From NCBI GenBank assembly GCA_001794215.1, contig MGJK01000015.1, positions 23,684-87,683 of the forward strand: a stretch of 64,000 bases of DNA, in the 5' to 3' direction. This DNA comes from Candidatus Yanofskybacteria bacterium RIFCSPHIGHO2_01_FULL_44_24 (GTDB lineage: Bacteria > Patescibacteriota > Minisyncoccia > 2-02-FULL-40-12 > GWA2-44-9). Positions 10,438 to 63,321 of the stretch are shown here, piece by piece. A program made the translations under genes and the position numbers. The notes under the pieces are model-generated. The model was given only the letters and a program-made list of their open reading frames with translations. It made no database searches and was not told the DNA's origin. The stretch's first letter is position 1. Every line of letters starts with the position of its first letter.

Positions 10438-12488
10438 GTAATCTTGTGAAATTTCGTTTCCGAAGGCCGAAGGGTGTCGGGATCGATATTATCCTTCTCG
10501 TCTTTTTCAGATAATGGAAATTCTGGAATATCTACACGAGCACCTTCCTTATCGATTACTATCGGAACTATAGTTTTATCTACACCGCTGACATCTATCA
10601 GGCCGAAATAGCGGTGAGCCGGAGTGGAAAACCGGGACAGTATTCTATACATCCTCGCAAGGATATCATTGAATATCGGCACTCCCCTATGGATAACTAT
10701 ATCCTCTTCGCCTATTTCTATGGAGCATCGGTGAATCTCGCCGTAAAGCACGCCCCGGCGCTTTAATTCCCAAAGCACATCTTTAACATTAGGATTTTCC
10801 ATAAATCCGAATTTTACTTGTACGGCTATAATGTTGAAGCCGAAATTTGTAATGGTGTACCTTTCGCCTATGCTAAACGGAGCTTTACCCTGAAGTATAG
10901 AAAGGACGATCATGTGCTTTGGTACCACTCCGTTTCTCTTCAGATAGACGCGCAGAGCAGCCGGCATGCCATCTTCGGGCGCGCTTACGGGATGAGAAGA
11001 CATGAACACAACAACACGGTCTGATTCAACGAGCCATCTTGCCCGGTCGTTCATAATGCCCTTGCTTTCTTCGAGTCGGCGCTTTAAATCTATAAGCCAA
11101 CTCATTTGGCGGGTATCTCCATAGGCGCGATGAGCCGTTCCAACCGCCTTTCTCCCCCATTGCCAGGCCCACATTACGGACAATAATACGAGGGCTACAA
11201 GAATAGGAATATAGCCTCCTTGCAGAAATTTAAGCAAACTGGATCCAAAAAAAGTTAAGTCAAAGAAAAGAAAAATCGTACAGATGGGAATTAATGCCTT
11301 GAGCGGCCATTTCCATCGGTAATTGGCCACGACGAAAAAAGCCAAGGTAGTGATTACCATCGTACCGGCTACGGCTACTCCATAAGCAGCCGCAAGGTTG
11401 CTTGAACTTTTAAAGAAGACGATCAAAATAACACACCCAAGGAATAACGCCCAGTTTATAAAGGGCATGTATATCTGGCCCCTGATATCCGGGTTCGTAT
11501 GTATCGTCTTAACTCTTGGAAAAACTCCAAGAGCCATGGCTTGATGAGTCAGTGAGTATGCGCCTGAAATTAACGCTTGACTGGCTATAACCGTGGCTAC
11601 CGTAGCTAAAATTATCATAGGAAAAAGCGCCCAATCAGGAGACAGAGCATAAAAAAGGTTACCCCCGGGAATTGGCGAGGAGCCAAGCAACATAGCTCCC
11701 TGGCCAAAATAATTCAACAGAAGAGAAGGGTAGACAAAGAAAAACCATGCATTTGTTATCGCCTTTCTCCCGAAGTGTCCCAGATCGGCATACAGCGCTT
11801 CTGCACCGGTAACACAAAGAAATACGCTGCCAAGTATCCATAAAGAACTAAGTCCATGGCTGAGGAGAAATCTAATTCCGTATGTCGGGTTAAGAGCTTG
11901 AAAAACTTCCGGATGTTTAAACAGCTGAGGCATAGCTAAGACGGCAAGAGTCACGAACCACAGTGTCATTACGGGACTGAACAAAACTCCGATTCGAGAA
12001 GTACCCCGTTTTTGCATTTTAAAAAGAAAAAACAGAATAGCAATCGTTATGGGCACCACCATATTAGATAGACCGGGCATGGCGATGCCAAGACCTTCTA
12101 TGGCCGAGACGACTGAAATAGCCGGAGTTATCATTCCGTCACCATACAGTAGCGCGGCTCCAAAGAGCACTAATAGTGTTACCCCCGCAAAAATCTTTCT
12201 TGGAATAACCCCCTGCTCCATTCTGATCAATCCAAGCAAAGCAAATATTCCGCCCTCTCCTTCGTTGTCGGCACGCAAGATAATAAAAATATATTTGAAA
12301 GCGACAATTAAAAAAAGTGACCAGAAAAACAGAGATAGGGCTCCAAAAACGTTGGACGTATTCGTTGCGACCTGATAATGACCGAAAAATATCTCTCTGA
12401 GCGCATAGAGCGGAGATGTACCTATATCTCCGAAAACGATGCCTAAGGAGAGGAAGGGCAGAGCCATGTTTGATAATCTTTTCAGCAT
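10434..12488 (-). CDS. kup: KUP/HAK/KT potassium uptake transporter
   Basis: Signature GDIGTSPLYAL near the N-terminus; 12 TM helices; cytoplasmic C-terminal domain. Confidence 0.9.
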   Translation of the reverse strand: MLKRLSNMALPFLSLGIVFGDIGTSPLYALREIFFGHYQVATNTSNVFGALSLFFWSLFLIVAFKYIFIILRADNEGEGGIFALLGLIRMEQGVIPRKIFAGVTLLVLFGAALLYGDGMITPAISVVSAIEGLGIAMPGLSNMVVPITIAILFFLFKMQKRGTSRIGVLFSPVMTLWFVTLAVLAMPQLFKHPEVFQALNPTYGIRFLLSHGLSSLWILGSVFLCVTGAEALYADLGHFGRKAITNAWFFFVYPSLLLNYFGQGAMLLGSSPIPGGNLFYALSPDWALFPMIILATVATVIASQALISGAYSLTHQAMALGVFPRVKTIHTNPDIRGQIYMPFINWALFLGCVILIVFFKSSSNLAAAYGVAVAGTMVITTLAFFVVANYRWKWPLKALIPICTIFLFFDLTFFGSSLLKFLQGGYIPILVALVLLSVMWAWQWGRKAVGTAHRAYGDTRQMSWLIDLKRRLEESKGIMNDRARWLVESDRVVVFMSSHPVSAPEDGMPAALRVYLKRNGVVPKHMIVLSILQGKAPFSIGERYTITNFGFNIIAVQVKFGFMENPNVKDVLWELKRRGVLYGEIHRCSIEIGEEDIVIHRGVPIFNDILARMYRILSRFSTPAHRYFGLIDVSGVDKTIVPIVIDKEGARVDIPEFPLSEKDEKDNIDPDTLRPSETKFHKIT

Positions 12489-12656: not shown

Positions 12657-13073
12657 ATGAGAAACGCCATTATTTCCATATTATTAATAAGCGCGTCGCT
12701 ATCAGCTGTTTTGGGCTTGATTGTAATGGACCACATGGGTGGGCAGGGCCATAGTGCGTGCCCCTTTGAAGCGGTGAGAATAACTGATTGTTCGCAGATT
12801 CAAAATTTCATATCTTTTATAGCTTCACATCTTAGGGCTTTGTCCAAATTTTCTTTGGCAGTTCTCACTGATGGTTTTACTAACCTGATATCTCTGCTTC
12901 TGTTGTTATCTTTGGCTATAGGAGTGCTTTTTAATAAGTCGGGGCCGCCCCGATTAAAACCACTGCTATCGGCGAACCGGCTTAGAATAGGCTTCGTTTT
13001 ACCTCAAGAAACTTTATTCACGGGCTGGTTCTCTCTCCACGAGAATAGCCCCACATTCATGGAAGGACGCTAA
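12657..13073 (+). CDS. Hypothetical membrane protein
   Basis: 138 aa, with N-terminal and internal TM helices. Confidence 0.35.
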   Translation: MRNAIISILLISASLSAVLGLIVMDHMGGQGHSACPFEAVRITDCSQIQNFISFIASHLRALSKFSLAVLTDGFTNLISLLLLLSLAIGVLFNKSGPPRLKPLLSANRLRIGFVLPQETLFTGWFSLHENSPTFMEGR

Positions 13074-52850: not shown

Positions 52851-52876
52851 CTTTAAAATATACCACGAATTTTTTT

Positions 52877-53413
52877 AAAAAAAAGCTGGGGGGGGGTTAC
52901 CTCCAGCGTTGATTCGACCGCGGGAGGGATAGAGCTTCGCGCTCTCCCTCCCGCCCCGCGGCCACTGTCGTCTCTTTCTGTTTCTGCTCGCCCGATGATC
53001 GGCGGGTCGCCGCGCCGCTGTCCCGCGCCGCAGGCGACCCGCCCTTCTTTCTTTCTCCGATCTCCGATGGATCTTTTGTTAGAGCTTTGCCCCCGATCAG
53101 GCACTCAACCTGACCGGAGAACGGTCGTCGCTTGAGTGGCGACGGGAGGAAGCCTTGCGCACATCGGCGCTTGGCCCTTGCCTCCAGCTCTGCGATGGCC
53201 CCATCCGGGCACCACCCCTTAACCGCCCTCAACGCCCGGGGATCGCGGCCGCGTTCCGGACACCAAAGAATTAGAGATCACGGGCAGGTCCGCCTGCTTT
53301 TCGAGACAGGCGGACCTCGAGGTTGGCCATTTCGGCGTTACCCCACTGCCCCCGAAAAACCGCTTAAAAAGTAATCTTTCAGGGACAGTGTCAGCTCAAA
53401 GAACGTATATTAC
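52877..53413 (-). ncRNA. Candidate large structured ncRNA of about 535 nt (GC about 62%), bracketed by a consensus promoter and an intrinsic terminator; class unresolved (weak RNase P RNA-like words)
   Basis: Minus-strand TTGACA (53447-53442) -N16- TATAAT (53425-53420); terminator GCTGGAGG…CCAGC plus T8 at 52907-52877; no credible ORF; words GGGCAG..GGUAACGCC, GGAGGCAAGGGCCAAG and AAGGGGUGGUGCC resemble RNase P conserved regions, but the P4 strands were not found. Confidence 0.5.
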
Positions 53414-53419
53414 CCTCTC

Positions 53420-53447
53420 ATTATAGCAAATCTACAGAATCTGTCAA
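53420..53447 (-). promoter_or_regulatory. Consensus sigma70 promoter (TTGACA-N16-TATAAT) for the 535-nt RNA; the -35 is embedded in a perfect 11-bp inverted repeat (53436-53465)
   Basis: Direct reading: agaatctgtca-agccccg-ctgacagattct. Confidence 0.6.
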
Positions 53448-53506
53448 GCCCCGCTGACAGATTCTCAAAACGATGACACTCTACCGCGATCGTTATATTC
53501 TGTCAC

Positions 53507-57128: not shown

Positions 57129-57455
57129 TTATCTTATCCCCGCACCTTCTTTAACTTCTGACTCGGGAATTATAAGAACCGGGCCGTCTTTGTCACTGGC
57201 CGCCAAAAGCATCCCGTTGCTTTCAAGACCCTTAAGGTTCCGGGGCTCCAAGTTTGCCACTACCACAATCTGTTTACCCACAAGAAGCTCGGGGGTATAA
57301 ATGGATCCTATACCAGCAACAATCTGCCTCTTCCCTAATTCTTCTCCTAAATCTATCTGCAGTTTGACTAACTTGTCAGAACCTTCGACCTTTTCAGCCT
57401 CGAGGATCTTGGCTACTCTTAGATCAATTTTTTTGAAATCGTCTATTGTAATCAT
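57129..57455 (-). CDS. csaA: tRNA-binding protein (CsaA/Trbp111 EMAP-like OB fold)
   Basis: DLRVAKI…; family-typical 108-aa size. Confidence 0.85.
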
Positions 57456-57493
57456 GACGTTATAATATGATAAATACTTATTTTTGAAAAGTA

Positions 57494-57515
57494 AAAGCCG
57501 AGATTAATCTCGGCT
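57494..57515 (-). terminator. Hairpin terminator after the small gene
   Basis: aagccgaga-ttaa-tctcggctt. Confidence 0.45.
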
Positions 57516-57542
57516 TGATACGATATGGTTTTAGTACGAATC

Positions 57543-57788
57543 TTAGTAATCCGCAGGCTGATCCACCTGCCAACCAGGCAGAAATGATCGGACAATATCG
57601 GGATTATACGGGCCAAACCCGTAAGATGTTCCAAAAATTCTCTTTCCCGCAAGATCAGCAATACCTCCTCCTCTTACCGAGGACAAGGGTATGCCATTCT
57701 GCTGAGCGACAGATGAATGAGAATCGTAGTTGTAGTCTATTGACCCGAATATAACTCTCTTATCCGTAACAACAAACTTGACGGTCAT
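57543..57788 (-). CDS. Hypothetical 81-aa Gly/Ser/Tyr-rich protein (standalone, with strong RBS and terminator)
   Basis: GGAGG-N5-ATG; hairpin downstream; no homology recognised. Confidence 0.45.
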   Translation of the reverse strand: MTVKFVVTDKRVIFGSIDYNYDSHSSVAQQNGIPLSSVRGGGIADLAGKRIFGTSYGFGPYNPDIVRSFLPGWQVDQPADY

Positions 57789-58009
57789 TGTTGCCTCCTT
57801 TTTATTAATGTAGCCCAGATAAGCAAAACCGGCCTATCTGGCCGGGGCGTTCTTAGAGTCTCAAAGATATTAGTCGTAACTAATGAAAACCAAAACCGCC
57901 ATGGCCAAAGAAGCCTGAAAAGAGCTCCTTTTTATAGCCATAGCTGTCACTGATTAAATTGTGATCTGGATTTAACATATTTTTATTAATGACGGATAAG
58001 AAAGCCGAG

Positions 58010-58166
58010 TCTATTCAAGCTCGGCCTTAACTTCCTGCCGTATTTTATCCTTCTCGGCGGTTCTTCGGTATTTTCCGCCTTTATCGGCAACATGGAATCC
58101 GCCCGTTTGACGGGGCAAAGGAATCCGTATTTTCTGATAGGCTTTCTTGACTCGTTTCTTCTTCAT
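58010..58166 (-). CDS. Small basic 51-aa protein (MKKKRVKKAYQKIR…)
   Basis: RBS GGAGAAAATC-ATG; flanked by hairpin gccgag-N10-ctcggc; not in the ORF track (below 60 aa). Confidence 0.3.
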
Positions 58167-58238
58167 GATTTTCTCCATTTCATTATATCATTTTTAAGGA
58201 GGGTAGTCCGACAAGTCGGACTACCCCATGTTTGAGGC

Positions 58239-58946
58239 CTACCCCTTTGCAAGCCCCATTTCTCTCACGATTTCCGGAAGCGGAATATCCGTCTCCTTGT
58301 GGAGCTGGACAGCCGCCATAAGATCCTTGAGAGAGATCGGCATCAAGGTGTTAATCACTACCGGATCGGTAATGCCTAAACCTAAGAGCAGAGCGGCGGA
58401 TGTCGATGGCCCGCCTATCAAGAACGGAGCCATCAGAGAGATGTAAAGCGGCGACCCGCCGACATCACTGGGAAGCGTGCCGAGAAAATCGGCCACCCTT
58501 TCGATGATTGCACCGCGACTCGTCTCATCGCCCATGATTACGGCATGGCACGCCGCTACCCTGACGATCAGTTCCATCTCTTCCCTTGAACCCTCGAAGA
58601 TTGTGGCATCCTTGCAGCCGAGAACTACCGTCTCGACAACAACCTTGGTTTCAGAGAGATCAGTTACGCTACCTCCGTAGCCAAGTTCGTAAACCACCAT
58701 GCTCTCAAGAGCCGCCATGAGCGGCCGCCGACAACCGCCGATGTCTCTCTTCATTCCTTGACCGTTGTCTCGCAAATTAGTTTGCCGGATCAACTTACTC
58801 ACCTCCTTTTTAAAGTTCCCTCTTTTAATGACCCGGGATCTGTCATCTACCGATTGAAAGCTCGGCAGAAAGCATGTTGTAGAACCCGCTCCGGAATTAC
58901 TGGAGCGGACCCCAATCGACCTCGACGCCAAGCTCCTTGGCGGCAA
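58239..58946 (-). CDS. Hypothetical protein (the true start is probably internal, about 58790 TTG or 58754 ATG); GC about 52%
   Basis: ORF track; AAGGAGG upstream of an internal start; no family recognised. Confidence 0.45.
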   Translation of the reverse strand: MPPRSLASRSIGVRSSNSGAGSTTCFLPSFQSVDDRSRVIKRGNFKKEVSKLIRQTNLRDNGQGMKRDIGGCRRPLMAALESMVVYELGYGGSVTDLSETKVVVETVVLGCKDATIFEGSREEMELIVRVAACHAVIMGDETSRGAIIERVADFLGTLPSDVGGSPLYISLMAPFLIGGPSTSAALLLGLGITDPVVINTLMPISLKDLMAAVQLHKETDIPLPEIVREMGLAKG

Positions 58947-59154
58947 GCTCAGTGAGTTCGCGCTTCTCCGCCTCGGAAAGCTGTTTGAGCTCCTCCGAGA
59001 AGTCTTTGAGCGCCTGCCCCGGCTTGTAGCCGAAGTAGTCGCGCAGAATTTTCATTGCTCCCGTTTTCTGGGCCATAGCGGCCTCCTGTTTCTGTTTTAA
59101 AAAGACAGTACTTTCCCGCCGATCAAAGGCCCGTCGGGTTGCCTGTTGTTTCAA
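58897..59154 (-). CDS. Hypothetical small protein (probable start MAQKTG at about 59076)
   Basis: ORF preceded by a 270-nt structured leader containing element copy A and X1. Confidence 0.35.
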   Translation of the reverse strand: MKQQATRRAFDRRESTVFLKQKQEAAMAQKTGAMKILRDYFGYKPGQALKDFSEELKQLSEAEKRELTELAAKELGVEVDWGPLQ

Positions 59155-59260
59155 AGAACAGGAGAGAAGCCTTAAAGTCCGGCTGTACAGTGGCCTTCAT
59201 CGTCACATACGGACGCCTCGCCTCATCGTACGTATTGCGCCGGTTTGCTTGTTTACTCCT

Positions 59261-59350
59261 CTCCCGCCAAAACCATCAGCTACCCTTCATGATATATCAT
59301 AAAGGGTATTGAAAACTTTGGTGGGAGTCCCGACCGACGCAAGGCCGGGA
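59261..59350. repeat. Double-hairpin element, copy A (CTCCCGCCAAAA…TTTTGGTGGGAG + TCCCGACC…GGCCGGGA)
   Basis: Direct reading; the inner segment carries a nested palindrome cccttcatgatatatcataaaggg. Confidence 0.7.
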
Positions 59351-59353
59351 CGT

Positions 59354-59407
59354 ACAGATTCTGTTGCCAGGCTCTGTAAGGCCCCGTCAGCCCAAAGCTG
59401 ACAGATT
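59354..59407. repeat. Conserved 54-nt element X1 (acagattctgttgccaggctctgtaaggccccgtcagcccaaagctgacagatt)
   Basis: Near-identical to X2 at 60800-60853; contains hairpin gtcagc-ccaaa-gctgac. Confidence 0.75.
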
Positions 59408-59423
59408 AACCGGGTCACAACGA

Positions 59424-59816
59424 TTAGAAGTGTCCGAGGTAGCCGTAGAAGTTGGCTACTTCGGCAAAGTACTCGTCAATACCGGGGATGCCATCCTCTT
59501 CAAGAGGCCGGCCTTCGGTATCAACGGTGCAACTCTCACCGACAGAATAACGGAAACGTTTTCCGGTTCCGTCGGTGCCGACGTAAAATTCGTGAGACGC
59601 GTTATGACCGACGCGCCAGAACTTAACGCCGTTGACGACGTGAGGCTTGTCAATCCACGGAGTATGCGGATTGTTGCCTTTGCCCCAATTGTACATGAGA
59701 TTCAACAGAAGAATCTCCTCCACAACAGGGTCGCCGTTAGAGTTTTCTGAAGCAACTTTTCTGAGTCGCTCCATAGCTCTTTCTTCTCGCTGTTCTTCCC
59801 GCTCTTCTTTTGTCAT
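59424..59816 (-). CDS. Hypothetical protein (130 aa; trimmed from the longer 233-aa ORF, which would span element copy B)
   Basis: ATG about 59816, 13 nt downstream of the element-B 3' arm GGTGGGAG; GC about 52%. Confidence 0.4.
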   Translation of the reverse strand: MTKEEREEQREERAMERLRKVASENSNGDPVVEEILLLNLMYNWGKGNNPHTPWIDKPHVVNGVKFWRVGHNASHEFYVGTDGTGKRFRYSVGESCTVDTEGRPLEEDGIPGIDEYFAEVANFYGYLGHF

Positions 59817-59828
59817 AGGACTGGGGAT

Positions 59829-59896
59829 TTCTCCCACCGAAGCCTCATAGACGCAGAAGTATGAGACTTCGGTGGGAGGCCGACATAAGTCGGCCG
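59829..59896. repeat. Double-hairpin element, copy B
   Basis: ctcccaccgaagcctcatagacgcagaagtatgagacttcggtgggag + ggccgacataagtcggcc. Confidence 0.75.
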
Positions 59897-60028
59897 GATT
59901 TTTACACTCAGGACGAGTAACCTGTTTTAGCAGAACAGGAACCGCAATCGGCGGGATGGATGTGAGTTGGAAGGACTCACGCTCCTTCTGTTGCCAGGCC
60001 GTCGCTCGGCCCCGCGTCGCAAGATAGA

Positions 60029-60340
60029 TCAGCCGGCAAGGCTGATCCGAAGACCCAGTAAGTCGCTCAAACGAGAAATTGCCTCGTCCGGCTTCCAACC
60101 GCAGTCCTCGAACACCAGGAAGCACGCCTCACGCAAATTGCGGGAAGTCCAGCGATATTTCACGCTGTTTCCAACAAGTTGCATGCGGCGGTCAGCCAGG
60201 GCTATCCTGCTTCTGCACGAATCACAGAACGGATTGCAAAGTCCGGCGACCTCGAACTTGACGGTTTTACCGTCAATGAGAATCCGCCGACCAGTCATCC
60301 ATCCTGCGACATGCACATACAGGCAAGTCTGCTCCATCAT
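60029..60340 (-). CDS. Hypothetical Cys-rich protein (104 aa from MMEQTC…; CNPFCDSC)
   Basis: RBS GGAGG-N4-ATG at 60340; the upstream part of the track ORF overlaps element C. Confidence 0.4.
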   Translation of the reverse strand: MMEQTCLYVHVAGWMTGRRILIDGKTVKFEVAGLCNPFCDSCRSRIALADRRMQLVGNSVKYRWTSRNLREACFLVFEDCGWKPDEAISRLSDLLGLRISLAG

Positions 60341-60442
60341 TTCACCTCCTCGATTCTGAAATTCCCCAGAATAACCAACCAGATGTGCCTTCGCACAAAA
60401 TGGCCAGTAAATTAAGGGTACATTTTTTTGAAAGAATGGGAT

Positions 60443-60513
60443 TTCTCCCACCGAAGCCTCATAGACGCAGAACTATGAGACTTCGGTGGGAGGCCGAGTC
60501 AGAGACTCAGCCG
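60443..60513. repeat. Double-hairpin element, copy C
   Basis: 49 of 50 identical to copy B over hairpin 1; hairpin 2 gccgagtc-agag-actcagc. Confidence 0.75.
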
Positions 60514-60592
60514 GTTGATTTGTTTACGCCGAAAACCATTCAGCGGATGCATTATCTGTTCCCGGGACTGCGATCACACCCCGGTGCAACCT

Positions 60593-60775
60593 TTATTTTG
60601 CACAGATAGGCAAAGTAGGGATACGAACGACCAATTCGCCATCAACCACGAAGCTGAAGAGTTCGCCGTTAATATTGACAGACCATTCATTTCCCAAAGA
60701 GCAGACACTGACTTCTACTCCGATTGCTGCCTTAAGAATCTCTTCGATAAGACTCTCTAATATATTTTTCTCCAT
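60593..60775 (-). CDS. Hypothetical 60-aa protein
   Basis: RBS GAGGAGAG; ATG at 60775, immediately downstream (on the minus strand) of X2. Confidence 0.4.
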   Translation of the reverse strand: MEKNILESLIEEILKAAIGVEVSVCSLGNEWSVNINGELFSFVVDGELVVRIPTLPICAK

Positions 60776-60799
60776 CTCTCCTCAAAGAACTCGGGACAT

Positions 60800-60853
60800 G
60801 CAGATTCTGTTGCCAGGCTCTGTAGGGCCCCGTCAGCCCAAAGCTGACAGATT
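60800..60853. repeat. Conserved 54-nt element X2
   Basis: 52 of 54 identical to X1. Confidence 0.75.
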
Positions 60854-60864
60854 GGGTCCAACTC

Positions 60865-61149
60865 CTATTTGAAGAAGTTGGCGAACCATCGCGGCTCGAG
60901 GATCACTACACCCTTTTCGGACATCGCCTCTTTCATGGCGAGAATTTCGTCCTTGAAGGCGCGCTTCACCTCATCGGCGTTCATTGATTCGACTTTGCGG
61001 TAGAATCCCTGAACGGCCACCGAGATGTTCAACGACTCCTGGGGTGTAACTCCAGGAGCGACCCATGAAAAGAGCGGTTTGCTCTTCATGAGAAGGTTGG
61101 GAGATGGTTCTACGCGAGCCACAGGGTTCCATGACACGTCCTGATACAT
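60865..61149 (-). CDS. Hypothetical protein (about 95 aa from MYQDVSW…)
   Basis: ORF track 60865..61182 uses a TTG inside element E; the ATG at about 61149 lies 23 nt after the element-E 3' arm. Confidence 0.4.
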   Translation of the reverse strand: MYQDVSWNPVARVEPSPNLLMKSKPLFSWVAPGVTPQESLNISVAVQGFYRKVESMNADEVKRAFKDEILAMKEAMSEKGVVILEPRWFANFFK

Positions 61150-61171
61150 AGATTTTGCGCTACTTCTCCGC

Positions 61172-61230
61172 TCTCCCACCAAAATCTCTTTAAAGAAACT
61201 TTGGTGGGAGGCCGAGTTTTACACTCGGCC
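61172..61230. repeat. Double-hairpin element, copy E
   Basis: ctcccaccaaaatctctttaaagaaactttggtgggag + ggccgagttttacactcggcc. Confidence 0.7.
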
Positions 61231-61374
61231 GTAGAGGTGGAAGTGAAAGACAGGGTCATAGCGAACAGCGAGCAACCGTCCGCTTCAGGCTTGTAACCCC
61301 TTCTGTCTTGCTCAAGGACAGCAGACTCACTACTCCGTCATGATCGACGGCGAGTCTGTTTTGCCGCCCTTCAC

Positions 61375-61464
61375 CCCCACCAAAACCTTGTATTCGCATG
61401 TGCGTATTTGTAACGCTATTCGCATACAAAACTTTGGTGGGGGTCCCGGCATAAGGCCGGGACT
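61375..61464. repeat. Double-hairpin element, copy D
   Basis: cccccaccaaaa…ttttggtggggg + tcccggcataaggccggga; the inner segment carries TATTCGCAYA words. Confidence 0.7.
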
Positions 61465-61471
61465 GGATGCG

Positions 61472-61861
61472 CTATAAGTAGCGCTTGAAGGCTTGGCGGG
61501 CGGCCTGCTGGCGCTGGACCCGACGCTGCTCCATCTCAACTACCGTCTGCTGGTAGCGATAGAAGCGGAGTCCGGCTTTGCGGCCGAGGGTCGCACAACG
61601 ACCACAGTGGATGTGGTCGGCCAGATCCTTGACCGAGGGCCAACGCCCGACGACCTTGCGGATGGTCGACAGGGCCGGCACCCAGGCCTCGGACTGAGCC
61701 ATCTTCGTCTGACACGGCTTGCCGGGTTTCGGCTCGCCATGACATCCGAAGGGCTTGTCCTGAGCCTTGTCGAGGGACTTCTCCGCCGCCGCTGTCACAA
61801 TCTGATCATTCATACACACCTCCAAAAATGAAAGAACTGCTGACCGAAAAACAATAATCAA
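61472..61861 (-). CDS. Hypothetical GC-rich (about 60%) zinc-ribbon-like protein
   Basis: C…C…HCGRC; Arg/Gln-rich C-terminus; composition foreign to the host. Confidence 0.4.
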   Translation of the reverse strand: MIIVFRSAVLSFLEVCMNDQIVTAAAEKSLDKAQDKPFGCHGEPKPGKPCQTKMAQSEAWVPALSTIRKVVGRWPSVKDLADHIHCGRCATLGRKAGLRFYRYQQTVVEMEQRRVQRQQAARQAFKRYL

Positions 61862-62267
61862 TGGAGCTCAAGGTATAAGCTTGTTGCCCCTTTCTGAAAC
61901 AATATGTGAAACATGCCTATTCGCACATATTGCCTCAGAAAGAGGCCGGAGCTTTGATTGTGGGGGCCGCGTTAATTATCTAGACGGCTGATACCACTAT
62001 ATGCTCAAAGCTCCACCGAGCTGAGCTCGGTCAATCCTCTAACTTTGTCTGGCCGGCAACTTTCGATGCCGATTTAACTTAACTGCCAGTATTATACTCA
62101 AATGAAATAATTTGTCAAGCCCCTCGGACAAAAAATAAAAAAATGTTCAAAGTAACGGCTTAAAGCCTTGCTTTTTTGAACATGGCAGGTGTCATGATAA
62201 CCAATAAAATAACCGTGATTGTTTTTTTACAAGAAAAAATAAACGCGATCATTTTTGTCACCCTTTC

Positions 62268-62296
62268 TTGACAAAAATTACGGTAAGGCGTATAAT
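62268..62296 (+). promoter_or_regulatory. Consensus sigma70 promoter TTGACA-N17-TATAAT
   Basis: Direct reading: 62268-62273 and 62291-62296. Confidence 0.6.
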
Positions 62297-62302
62297 AGAC
62301 AT

Positions 62303-62547
62303 GTAGCCTGAGGGCAGGCTACCCTCGACAAGAGGAACCAGCGGGAGAAACGCAGGCCTGTTCCCCGTCGACAGGAGATCGGATCTCAAGCGCGAAAAAG
62401 GGATAGGCCAAATGCCTCCTGCCAAAGGAGGTCCAACGTGGGCTCGAGATGAATTCAATTTTAAGAGCTCAAGAGAACTTTAGAAATTAGTGGTGAAGCG
62501 AGTCATGGGTTTCGGCCGTCCACCCTTTCAGGGGGATGGCCTTTTTG
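62303..62547 (+). ncRNA. Orphan structured sRNA candidate of about 245 nt (GC about 52%), between a consensus promoter and an intrinsic terminator
   Basis: Multiple hairpins (guagccug-aggg-caggcuac; gagauc-g-gaucuc; ccucc-ugccaaa-ggagg); terminator ggccgtccaccc…gggggatggcc plus T5; runs into the convergent TrmB gene, with no downstream + gene. Confidence 0.45.
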
Positions 62548-62562
62548 TTTCCCAAGAGAGAA

Positions 62563-63321
62563 TTATATCTTGCCGGAGATATTCCAAATCAAGTTGAGCA
62601 GGTTCCGGAAAGAATTTGCGATTTCTTGGTGCCTGATCATGGCACCGGAAATCTTTCCCTTCAAAGCCGCGATAGCGACAATATCATCATAGACGGTTAT
62701 GTCTACATTAAAAGGCATTTTATCCGGGGAAATATATCGAGCTTCCCGCAACATAGCGGGATCGCTTTCTTTAAATACCGGCCCCTTTGAAGATGTGTAT
62801 ATGGAGCGCGAATGAATACCCTTTTTAACCCTTTTGTCAGAATACGATTCCGAGTCTGGAGAATCAGGAAAAAGCTTAATCACATCATCAAGAGAAGTAA
62901 TACCTATGATTTTCTTTTCTTTGGCCTTTAGAAATTCCCGCTCCATCCTCATCAACCCCTCTTTTCCCTCGAAAAATCTTACTTCAGGCTTTTGATCGCC
63001 CAAACTGAAAACCGTCATAAGCTCGGGCATCAGTTTATTAAGGGTTTCTTTCTTGCCTTCCCAATCTCTCCTTTCCCGTTCAATAACAGACTCTAAGTAT
63101 TCAGGCGACTCAGCTACGAATAGCTGTTTCTTGCCTTTATTTTGAGTGCTTACTAAGCCGAGTTTTTTCAGAGATTCAACCTGGACATAAGCAGTAGGCC
63201 GGTTAATCCCGGCTTTGGCCGATATTTCAAGCATTGTGGCCGGACCAAGCTCAAGCATGGCCAAATACACCTTAGCTTCGTTGTCTGACAAACCGAGATT
63301 TTTTAGCTGGTTAACAAGCAT
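62563..63321 (-). CDS. TrmB-family transcriptional regulator
   Basis: N-terminal TrmB HTH (LGLSDNEAKVYLAMLELGPATMLEISAKAGINRPTAY) plus a C-terminal sugar-sensor-like domain. Confidence 0.8.
   Translation of the reverse strand: MLVNQLKNLGLSDNEAKVYLAMLELGPATMLEISAKAGINRPTAYVQVESLKKLGLVSTQNKGKKQLFVAESPEYLESVIERERRDWEGKKETLNKLMPELMTVFSLGDQKPEVRFFEGKEGLMRMEREFLKAKEKKIIGITSLDDVIKLFPDSPDSESYSDKRVKKGIHSRSIYTSSKGPVFKESDPAMLREARYISPDKMPFNVDITVYDDIVAIAALKGKISGAMIRHQEIANSFRNLLNLIWNISGKI

Follow-up and report, generated by a model that had tools for sequence, protein, structure and literature searches.

What is the repeated double hairpin that separates a run of small genes on the minus strand of the Candidatus Yanofskybacteria contig MGJK01000015.1, and does it act in DNA or in RNA? 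The stretch of this contig analysed here, referred to as the window, is 64,000 nucleotides (nt) long. Its segment 58000-62120 is best read as a GC-elevated, single-promoter operon of eight small orphan open reading frames (ORFs) on the minus strand, in which five copies of the double hairpin and three copies of a second motif (motif 2) lie on the same strand. An earlier, sequence-only reading had offered two interpretations of the element, an attC-like site in an integron-type cassette array and an RNA switch that sequesters ribosome binding sites (RBS). The double hairpin is a new family of strand-specific structured RNA elements in the Candidate Phyla Radiation (CPR, or Patescibacteria).

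Structure and distribution of the double hairpin

The five copies that had been reported were all recovered in place, both by a repeat finder and by a covariance model, R1, built from copies in other genomes. R1 produced exactly five matches in the 64 kb, all on the minus strand (33-51 bits, E values of 9e-10 to 4e-5), located at 61373-61444, 61172-61211, 60444-60493, 59830-59879 and 59260-59328. The half-site TTYGGTGGGRG has 13 matches in the 64 kb, compared with 3.7 ± 2.0 expected, the ten real ones among them being confined to 59261-61443. Every copy contains, on the sense strand, a GC hairpin (P1; for example GGCCGAG…CUCGGCC or GUCCCGGCC…GCCGGGAC) that abuts a second hairpin (P2) on its 5′ side, and the outer arms of P2 in the window read CYCCCACCRAAGUYU … RRYUUYGGYGGGRG around a variable distal stem. 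The copies, in the order of the sense strand, are:

61373-61461, minus strand: copy E, with P1 at 61445-61461 and P2 at 61373-61444; 42.2 bits
61174-61230, minus strand: copy D, with P1 at 61210-61230 and P2 at 61174-61209; a minimal form with two G·U pairs
60438-60512, minus strand: copy C, with P1 at 60492-60512, P2 at 60446-60491 and a third hairpin, P3, at 60438-60449; 50.2 bits
59824-59895, minus strand: copy B, with P1 at 59878-59895, P2 at 59832-59877 and P3 at 59824-59835; 48 bits
59262-59351, minus strand: copy A, with P1 at 59327-59351 and P2 at 59262-59326; 33.1 bits

In copy E the outer U-A pair of P2 is replaced by C-G through compensatory changes on both sides, and the distal part of its P2 is kept in L145 and L149 (loci outside the window are given here as L numbers). 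The P3 hairpin of copies B and C, GGGA-GAAA-UCCC, re-uses the last GGG of P2; the two copies are 98% identical across P2 and P3, whereas their P1 hairpins and flanking genes differ.

The full grammar on the sense strand consists of P1, a variable GC hairpin, followed by P2 (CCCACCAAAG…UUUUGGUGGG), often by P3, and then by a GUUCUUU box, a Shine-Dalgarno sequence (SD) and a start codon. An alignment of 35 sequences and 17 pairs was used to characterize P2. Its outer 10 pairs are essentially invariant, the tenth being a G·U pair in 32 of 34 sequences, and its inner seven pairs covary in a stem of varying length. Paired cells make up 97.9% of the alignment; the corresponding values are 85.7 ± 0.9 for shuffles and no more than 62.5% for a shifted register. 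Double compensatory changes are found at 8 of the 17 pairs, and the covariation score (0.353 vs 0.115) was reached by none of 500 shuffles. Approximately 74 cells are G·U, and one natural variant, CCUGCC/GGUGGG, pairs through wobbles only. P1 forms a stable hairpin in 38 of 39 distinct copies from unrelated sequences (350 Watson-Crick and 19 G·U pairs), with a stem of 6-13 bp that always lies 0-1 nt from P2. P3, which consists of the terminal GGG of P2 plus 1-5 nt paired with a downstream …CCC, is present in 24 of the 39 copies, or in 26 if two copies that pair only GG are counted, and its stems covary also (GGGUGAA/UUCACCC, GGGCAA/UUGCCC, GGGACA/UGUCCC). The covariation proposed earlier as a check of the structure is thus present in the inner stem of P2 and in P3.

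All five window copies fold better on the minus (sense) strand, with 13 G·U pairs compared with 3 and a ΔΔG of 2.8-9 kcal/mol, and R1 typically scores the sense strand 15-35 bits above the antisense (51.2 and 29.7 bits, respectively, for copy D). Since G·U pairs become A·C on the complement, the fold is strand-specific, and P1-P2 is most simply an RNA fold in the sense transcript. Stop-to-stop ORF coverage, tried as a further strand test, gave no discrimination. A remnant of a tRNA 3′ end or a permuted tRNA, considered on account of UCCCACCA in the 5′ arm, was rejected because P1 stems of 6-13 bp with variable loops are unlike T-arms, and ARAGORN detected no tRNA in the island. A T7-like or hairpin promoter was rejected as well, no promoter-like spacing having been found by promoter scan or by eye.

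A strict bipartite pattern had five matches in 185,579 species genomes, where a rough estimate gives ∼0.5 by chance, and four of these are in named CPR metagenome-assembled genomes, from Paceibacterota, Zambryskibacteria and, twice, Saccharibacteria. More than 119 loci matched the core pattern in a scan of metagenomes; after removal of false positives (tRNA 3′ ends plus terminators, one coding-sequence match and a GC-rich repeat resembling repetitive extragenic palindromic (REP) sequences), about 47 elements in 39 loci share one architecture among the matches listed. The search for further copies that had been suggested therefore yields dozens, in Saccharibacteria, Paceibacterota, Zambryskibacteria, Yanofskybacteria and metagenomes. 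P1-P2 copies were also detected at L076 ∼10599-10644 and L107 ∼12937-12979 (57 and 48 bits), the L076 contig having a high GC of ∼0.63; going by these copies, the family may reach beyond the low-GC CPR lineages. As a rule the copies form co-oriented arrays beside a TrmB-family gene. At least 18 further loci carry two to five co-oriented copies, with no opposing sense copies seen in the R1 table, and a noisier census by regular expressions flagged four loci with copies on both strands.

No Rfam family matches the element at the gathering threshold, and at E <= 5 only spurious miRNA-hairpin matches appear (17-27 bits, where 52-100 are needed), with no ribozyme model among them, whether hammerhead, twister, twister-sister, pistol or hatchet. 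No description of the element was found in the literature, so that its characterization as an undescribed repeated structure organizing a block of unknown genes holds good. A first scan of viral contigs had no matches and a second had seven, with no real member among six examined (L129 left out). The six proved to be coding sequence or a tRNA 3′ end plus terminator and the recurrent neighbours of the arrays are housekeeping genes, on which grounds a phage origin was rejected.

Position in the operon and in sister arrays

The co-oriented ORF upstream of an element usually ends 10-40 nt before P2, i.e., just before P1. On the other side, an exact GTTCTTT is found within 70 nt downstream (median 18 nt) in 19 of 67 copies, compared with 2 in the upstream control and 0 on the complement. 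The consensus of this box is AAWGUUCUUU, and typically an SD and start codon follow GTTCTTT at once. On the coding strand of the island it precedes the genes g1, g4 and g7, and the 18 other occurrences in the window are scattered and lack such an SD-start context. P1-P2 can be separated from P3/GUUCUUU: GTTCTTT-SD stands without P1-P2 before g1 and g4 of the window, and P1-P2 stands without a downstream gene, with a canonical terminator directly after it, in L031, L037 and L091. In L037 it also follows directly on a transfer-messenger RNA (tmRNA) gene and two tRNA-Lys genes, and in L031 on a tRNA-like gene. Because P1-P2 comes after ORFs, tRNAs and tmRNA alike and may be followed directly by a terminator, it is a module of unit boundaries and not an RBS switch; the same range of upstream units is incompatible with a role linked to how the downstream gene is translated.

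The 58200-61900 block has a GC of 0.49-0.63 in 400-nt windows, with 0.46 at 60400-60799 as the sole exception, and the immediate flanks have ∼0.39-0.46, making the compositional contrast with the host noted earlier a real step. The operon extends beyond the limits first given, 58200-61900, running from a promoter at 62118-62091 to a last ORF and terminator-like hairpin at ∼58178-57996. Similarly, mechanical ORFs do reach the upper end of the 60-235 aa first given, whereas the likely genes are of 55-184 aa. These genes (113, 94, 60, 103, 130, 59, 184 and ∼51-55 aa) agree with independent gene calls for Candidatus Yanofskybacteria contig MGKL01000013.1 (GCA_001795655.1), and none of the eight has a match in Pfam, PHROGs, PADLOC or NCBIfam, as expected from the sequence-only reading, which had recognized no homology. 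Besides the element copies, the operon contains:

62091-62118, minus strand: sigma-70-type promoter TTGACA-16-TATAAT, 12/12 consensus; sequence kept in L145 and L149
61814-62084, minus strand: leader of ∼270 nt, with a GTTCTTT box at 61831-61837 just before the SD and ATG of g1
61472-61813, minus strand: g1, 113-aa orphan, first gene of the operon, from gene calls and relatives
61233-61372, minus strand: spacer between copies E and D, a 'non-coding unit' with no credible ORF and no gene called
60865-61149, minus strand: g3, 94-aa orphan ORF; homologue in L145
60792-60853, minus strand: motif 2 copy 2, …CGGGGCC-loop-AGCCUGGCAACAGAA…, from the repeat finder
60593-60775, minus strand: g4, 60-aa orphan ORF, from a gene call
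60029-60340, minus strand: g5, 103-aa orphan ORF; homologues in L145, L149 and L100
59986-60046, minus strand: motif 2 copy 3, diverged; homologous region in L145 and L149
59424-59816, minus strand: g6, 130-aa orphan ORF; L004 homologue 69% identical, another in L148
59346-59407, minus strand: motif 2 copy 1, running straight into P1 of copy A; same layout in L145
58897-59159, minus strand: GTTCTTT box at 59153-59159, then g7, 59-aa orphan ORF at 58897-59076; homologues in L145 and L149
58239-58793, minus strand: g8, 184-aa orphan ORF; a 12-bp hairpin follows at 58200-58231
57996-58178, minus strand: x, last ORF, 55 aa, basic; homologues in L004, L108, L145 and L149

According to a promoter scan, 62118-62091 is the only strong minus-strand promoter in 57400-62700; no promoter was found inside the island and no promoter-like site in or beside any element, in agreement with the earlier description of the ORFs as promoterless. 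The terminator scan scored no combination of hairpin and U-tract at or downstream of an element on the sense strand of the window. A terminator-like hairpin with a T-rich tail at ∼57996-58025, read from the sequence (its loop exceeds the loop limit of the terminator scan), overlaps the stop codon of x. Given the single upstream promoter and the lack of internal promoters and of element-borne terminators, the block is best read as one operon, from ∼62084 to ∼58025-57996, and the leader, g1, the seven further ORFs and the five boundaries would be transcribed from 62118-62091 as one RNA. Leader segment 61954-61995 is kept in L145, L149 and L108. An inverted repeat within the leader, just upstream of g1 (61886-61946; arms of 23 nt, 87% complementary, loop of 15 nt), may serve the adjacent TrmB-family regulator as an operator, or else form a leader hairpin.

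Motif 2 had been recognized earlier as a 54-nt element in two copies. Its existence is borne out, but the two copies extend over 62 nt, at 59346-59407 and 60792-60853 (95% identity), and what had been taken for a partial copy at ∼59987-60000 is in fact a third, diverged full copy at ∼59986-60046. Motif 2, too, constitutes a family, in which a variable hairpin and a short stem come before the invariant core CCUGGSAACAGAA; at least one compensatory change is seen in the stem (GGGCC/GGCCU vs GGGCU/AGCCU). Copy 2 is followed directly by GTCCCGA-GTTCTTT (box at 60784-60790) and then by the SD and ATG of g4, and in copy 3 the stop codon of g5 lies inside the upstream hairpin. Outside the window, motif 2 is found in L004, L011, L031, L037 (three copies), L107, L108, L145 (two copies) and L149, always on the sense strand and always after a unit; one of the L037 copies is situated inside the tmRNA, just past the tag reading frame. 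A pseudoknot in motif 2 was rejected, since it was no better than shuffled controls in most copies.

The genes that recur beside the arrays encode a TrmB-family regulator (11 loci), RNase Y (6), CCA-adding enzyme (5), a PaaX-like protein (4) and ClpP (4). These are housekeeping CPR genes; the loci are chromosomal and syntenic and are not phage genomes. Two sister arrays, L031 and its close relative L037, are organized as follows:

L031, sense strand, start of the array: TrmB gene, consensus promoter, ∼400 nt of structured non-coding sequence, second consensus promoter
L031, sense strand, middle: GTTCTTT leader, small ORF, type III hammerhead, P1-P2-P3, lipoprotein ORF, motif 2, tRNA-like gene
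L031, sense strand, end: P1-P2-P3, ORF, P1-P2, ORF, P1-P2, terminator
L037, sense strand, start of the array: hammerhead, bona fide tmRNA (107 bits), P1-P2-P3, lipoprotein ORF, motif 2, tRNA-Lys
L037, sense strand, end: P1-P2-P3, ORF, tRNA-Lys, P1-P2, terminator
L031 11344-11396, minus strand: type III hammerhead, 40 bits, E = 3e-5; the alignment shows a short stem III
L037 3708-3762, minus strand: type III hammerhead, 47 bits
L053 549-602, minus strand: type III hammerhead, 38.5 bits
L087 3803-3857, minus strand: type III hammerhead, 29 bits

All four hammerhead matches fall below the Rfam gathering score of 48.5, and all are inside arrays and on the sense strand. The complete tmRNA gene of L037 (3183-3541, minus strand) is missing at the equivalent site of L031 (∼11190-11340, minus strand). 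The two tRNA-Lys genes of L037, each followed by P1-P2, are near-identical, and their L031 homologue is tRNA-like, with an 11-nt anticodon loop. The contexts in which P1-P2 occurs point to a generic function at unit boundaries, in a transcript that is visibly built for RNA processing. In L005, 811-1279 and 1652-2340 (plus strand) contain no credible ORF between elements and look highly structured, with a long hairpin at 813-897; such ORF-less stretches, in L005 and at 61233-61372 of the window, indicate that array units can be non-coding RNAs.

The first gene, g1, adjoins the TrmB gene across a gene-free gap of 0.7-1.7 kb in the window, in L145/L147 and in L148. Its product is zinc-finger-like, with C24, H25, H67, C70 and C73 invariant, C34 present in at least 90% and a basic C-terminal helix. 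All of its relatives are anonymous (33 close ones, ∼40 representatives), and the structural model, of good confidence (predicted local distance difference test score, pLDDT, of 84.7), has no structural neighbour. Since BLAST detects g1 in only some of the array loci, it is not clearly obligatory. An assignment to HUH or Y1 enzymes was rejected, because the 'HIH' is not conserved (H69 is F/Y in relatives) and the helical, zinc-finger-like fold has no match. Insertion sequence (IS)-type transposase genes (DDE_Tnp_1; rve) are located next to or within the TrmB-g1 interval at L135 399-1352 and L145 5363-6283, and their presence in some populations suggests that the TrmB-g1 locus is an insertion hotspot.

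The cassette-like behaviour proposed for the block is confirmed by comparison of relatives, as L004, L145, L148 and L149 share g1, g3, g5, g6, g7, x and elements in differing order and number. With L145 and L149 the window has in common the promoter, the leader, g1, g3, g5, g7, x, motif 2 and individual elements, again in different order:

L145: leader, g5, E, g1, g3, motif 2, A, g7, x
Window, first part: leader, g1, E, non-coding spacer, D, g3, motif 2, g4, C
Window, after C: g5, B, g6, motif 2, A, g7, g8, x

In L004 and L148, g1, an element and g6 are retained, the other genes being absent. The 5′ edge of P1 and the 3′ edge of P2 are where the blocks of homology are interrupted, and the block exchanged differs by pair, B and C sharing P2 and P3 and E moving as P1 plus P2. 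This variation of the block boundaries fits homologous exchange at repeats better than a fixed crossover point. Empty-site variants were not found; the island is present in all 23 same-population contigs that carry the flanking TrmB protein.

Two further features of the window can be mentioned here. A second perfect 12/12 sigma-70 promoter, at 62268-62296 on the plus strand, is divergent from the operon. The gene-free ∼245 nt after it (within 62268-62550, plus strand) end in a hairpin and U-run, have a folding energy of -100 kcal/mol (z = -4.7 vs shuffles) and have no Rfam match, and the stretch is a candidate small RNA (sRNA); nucleotide-level conservation was found in neither L145 nor L149. 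The complementarity of its segment CUCCUGCCAAAG to the 3′ arm of P2 was discarded as within chance (∼2 such matches per window by a rough estimate). Between frr and a PaaX-like gene, ∼650 nt at 52853-53500 have a GC of up to 0.63, contain no gene according to independent callers and no Rfam match even at E <= 1, and carry one GTTCTTT, at 53404 on the minus strand; they may represent another structured RNA or a foreign insert.

Explanations for the element

The best explanation of P1-P2(-P3), to which we give about an even prospect of being right, is that of a 'punctuation' module for RNA processing and stability at the unit boundaries of one long transcript. A conserved trans-acting factor would recognize the invariant base of P2, the long transcript would be cut by an endonuclease, for instance within the single-stranded box (G|UUCUUU) or just upstream of P1, and the stacked hairpins would fix the resulting RNA ends and shield them. 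Each unit would thereby gain its own stability and translation, a scheme in which the hammerheads and tRNA/tmRNA genes of the sister arrays would take part as well. The 40-60 nt of conserved sequence, being repeated, would incidentally offer homology for recombination, and gene content would in this way be shuffled, cassette-like, between relatives. The sequence data establish the structure of the element, its strand specificity, the grammar of its positions, its organization in arrays and its spread among taxa; transcription as one RNA, processing and stabilization, the trans-factor and recombination are inferences.

Several observations weigh against this explanation. An invariant 10-bp base is needless for a purely protective hairpin, leaving a sequence-specific feature unexplained, and a sequence-specific agent could act on DNA, on single-stranded hairpins that tolerate G·T pairs. 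The 3′ arm of copy A, GGCGGGAG, results in one A·C on the sense strand where the antisense has G·U, as does copy 3 of L005. Many copies, including A, D and E of the window, have neither P3 nor the GUUCUUU box, so the module is not uniform. The higher GC and the orphan genes point to a horizontal origin, which is also compatible with a mobile system at the DNA level.

A cassette system of this kind, in which an unrecognized recombinase binds the folded P2 as an attC-like site in single-stranded DNA and moves ORFs, tRNAs and tmRNA, would not be an integron, and is on balance unlikely. As with attC, units that are small, co-oriented and mostly without a promoter of their own each carry one structured site at the 3′ end; the element has a conserved hairpin base and a variable top, and it is arranged in a single array per locus, beside the conserved TrmB and g1 pair, whose unit content and order vary among relatives with breaks at element edges; the tmRNA present in L037 and absent at the same place in L031 and the deviating GC of the island are equally in keeping with such a system. 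The integron interpretation of the sequence-only reading nevertheless fails on core sites, recombinase and strand of the fold, and of the attC features only the one site per unit is found. Neither strand of 58200-61900 contains a pair of R′′ (RYYYAAC) and R′ (GTTRRRY) 45-150 nt apart, in line with the absence of GTTRRRY cores admitted from the start, and single attC boxes occur at four positions, none of them in an element (three are within ORFs and one comes right after the stop of g3). The lack of intI was also correctly seen: no recombinase domain was detected in the scanned ORFs of the island and its flanks, and neither a tyrosine or serine recombinase nor an HUH enzyme was encountered in these ORFs, in the gene calls of four g1-bearing loci or in the ten annotated families of recurrent neighbours. 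The fold of g1 does not resemble that of a recombinase. In place of a bottom-strand fold with extrahelical bases, P2 stems are nearly perfect and the coding-strand fold, rich in G·U pairs including one at a conserved position, is the more stable in five of five copies. The units here include tRNA, tmRNA and non-coding stretches, exchanged blocks have varying boundaries that fit homologous exchange better, and neither empty-site nor excision variants were seen among the 23 same-population contigs.

Of the explanations that remain at the RNA level, a non-canonical terminator or attenuator after each unit is improbable. The GC-rich P1 does start a few nt after stop codons and the 3′ ends of tRNA and tmRNA, the usual site of a terminator, but P1 and P2 are both without a U-tract behind them, canonical terminators of the hairpin-plus-U type are in use in the same genome, a separate canonical terminator lies at most ∼10 nt after P1-P2 in L031, L037 and L091, and no promoters between units would restart transcription. 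Simple terminators, named at the outset as the outcome that would overturn the earlier interpretation, find no support, none of the elements having been scored as a terminator on the sense strand. That the element cuts the polycistronic transcript at its boundaries as a self-cleaving ribozyme of a new class, or as some other catalytic or ligand-binding RNA, is just as improbable. Some 20 nucleotides, including the conserved G·U, do not vary between CPR lineages, P3 competes with P2 for one GGG, and hammerheads occur in the same arrays, a co-occurrence known for other small ribozyme classes; the invariant nucleotides, however, are in a regular helix rather than in junctions or loops, P3 is dispensable in many copies, and Rfam ribozyme models do not match even at the relaxed threshold. 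There is little reason to expect a selfish miniature DNA repeat without operon function, of the MITE (miniature inverted-repeat transposable element), REP or REPIN type. Such repeats are likewise palindromes with conserved ends, P1 plus P2 moves as a block independent of the flanking genes, and IS transposase genes are near some loci. REP, REPIN and MITE repeats are dispersed in both orientations, whereas all five copies here lie on one strand within 2.2 kb of the 64-kb window and nowhere else in it. Arrays occupy one strand each by the R1 table (the noisier census aside), elements keep a fixed position with respect to stops, GUUCUUU boxes and SDs, distant CPR lineages share the conserved sequence, and no target-site duplications were seen by eye at the elements.

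An RBS-sequestering thermosensor or protein-binding translational switch, finally, can hardly be what the element is. It had been proposed because the 3′ arms of copies B and E seemed to occupy the SD position; this applies to copy B, whose arm GGUGGGAG lies 16 nt before the ATG of g6 with no other SD, but not to copy E, which has no credible downstream ORF. In L148 and L004, GUUCU abuts the ATG of the same gene family (g6). The distances from arm to next start are nevertheless 16-186 nt in copies A-C, most downstream genes have their own SD (of GGAGG type at g1, g4, g5 and g7), and P1-P2 also follows tRNA and tmRNA genes and precedes terminators with no downstream ORF.

Known systems and meaning for CPR biology

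Structured repeats between the cistrons of an operon are a kind of element already known. REP sequences and bacterial interspersed mosaic elements (BIMEs), the 3′ inverted repeats of chloroplasts and plant mitochondria and the RNase III sites of T7 serve as processing signals or exonuclease barriers in polycistronic RNAs. These are intercistronic or 3′-untranslated hairpins, as is P1-P2, but they are either dispersed genome-wide (REP) or without an invariant helix sequence, whereas the copies described here are confined to one operon and keep a 10-bp base across distant CPR lineages. Structured RNAs between cistrons also define processing points in the tRNA punctuation of mitochondria and in ribozyme-flanked genes of prophage-like regions. 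The tRNAs, tmRNA and hammerheads between the ORFs of the sister arrays resemble this arrangement, with the difference that P1-P2 is neither tRNA-like nor a known ribozyme and accompanies such RNAs instead of replacing them. In hyperplastic regions of T4-type phage, promoter-early stem-loops (PeSLs), reportedly described by Arbiol, Comeau and Krisch in 2010, are another member of this kind: short conserved stem-loop repeats that flank small orphan ORFs and appear to mediate modular shuffling. The double hairpin differs from PeSLs in having no promoter in or beside it, in its chromosomal locus, syntenic in CPR and not in phage, and in its two to three helices with an invariant helix base. What is new is the CPR-confined sequence-structure family, its three-helix grammar, the base conserved across lineages, the arrays at a single locus and the association with hammerheads, tRNAs and a tmRNA.

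There is a slim chance that P1-P2 is instead the recognition structure of an integrase-independent system of unit exchange, or a new catalytic RNA, in CPR. If unit exchange were true, a single strong promoter at a constant chromosomal site next to a TrmB-family regulator would serve an assembly of cassettes that can replace one another, be they protein genes, tRNAs, tmRNA, ribozymes or non-coding RNAs, and the system would be a functional analogue of the integron made from different parts. An element that acts on DNA or is catalytic would constitute a new kind of cassette system or ribozyme.

The CPR, bacteria with tiny genomes, form a very large branch that is uncultivated and poorly understood, and to our knowledge almost nothing is known of their RNA biology. 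The element provides an easily recognizable motif of ∼20 invariant nucleotides that is common to Saccharibacteria and Parcubacteria-type lineages and points to a hypervariable locus with a strong promoter, in which orphan small proteins are encoded alongside ribozymes, tRNAs and even a tmRNA. Model R1 is a search handle for such loci, which offer a testable system for polycistronic RNA processing and accessory-gene diversification in streamlined symbionts.

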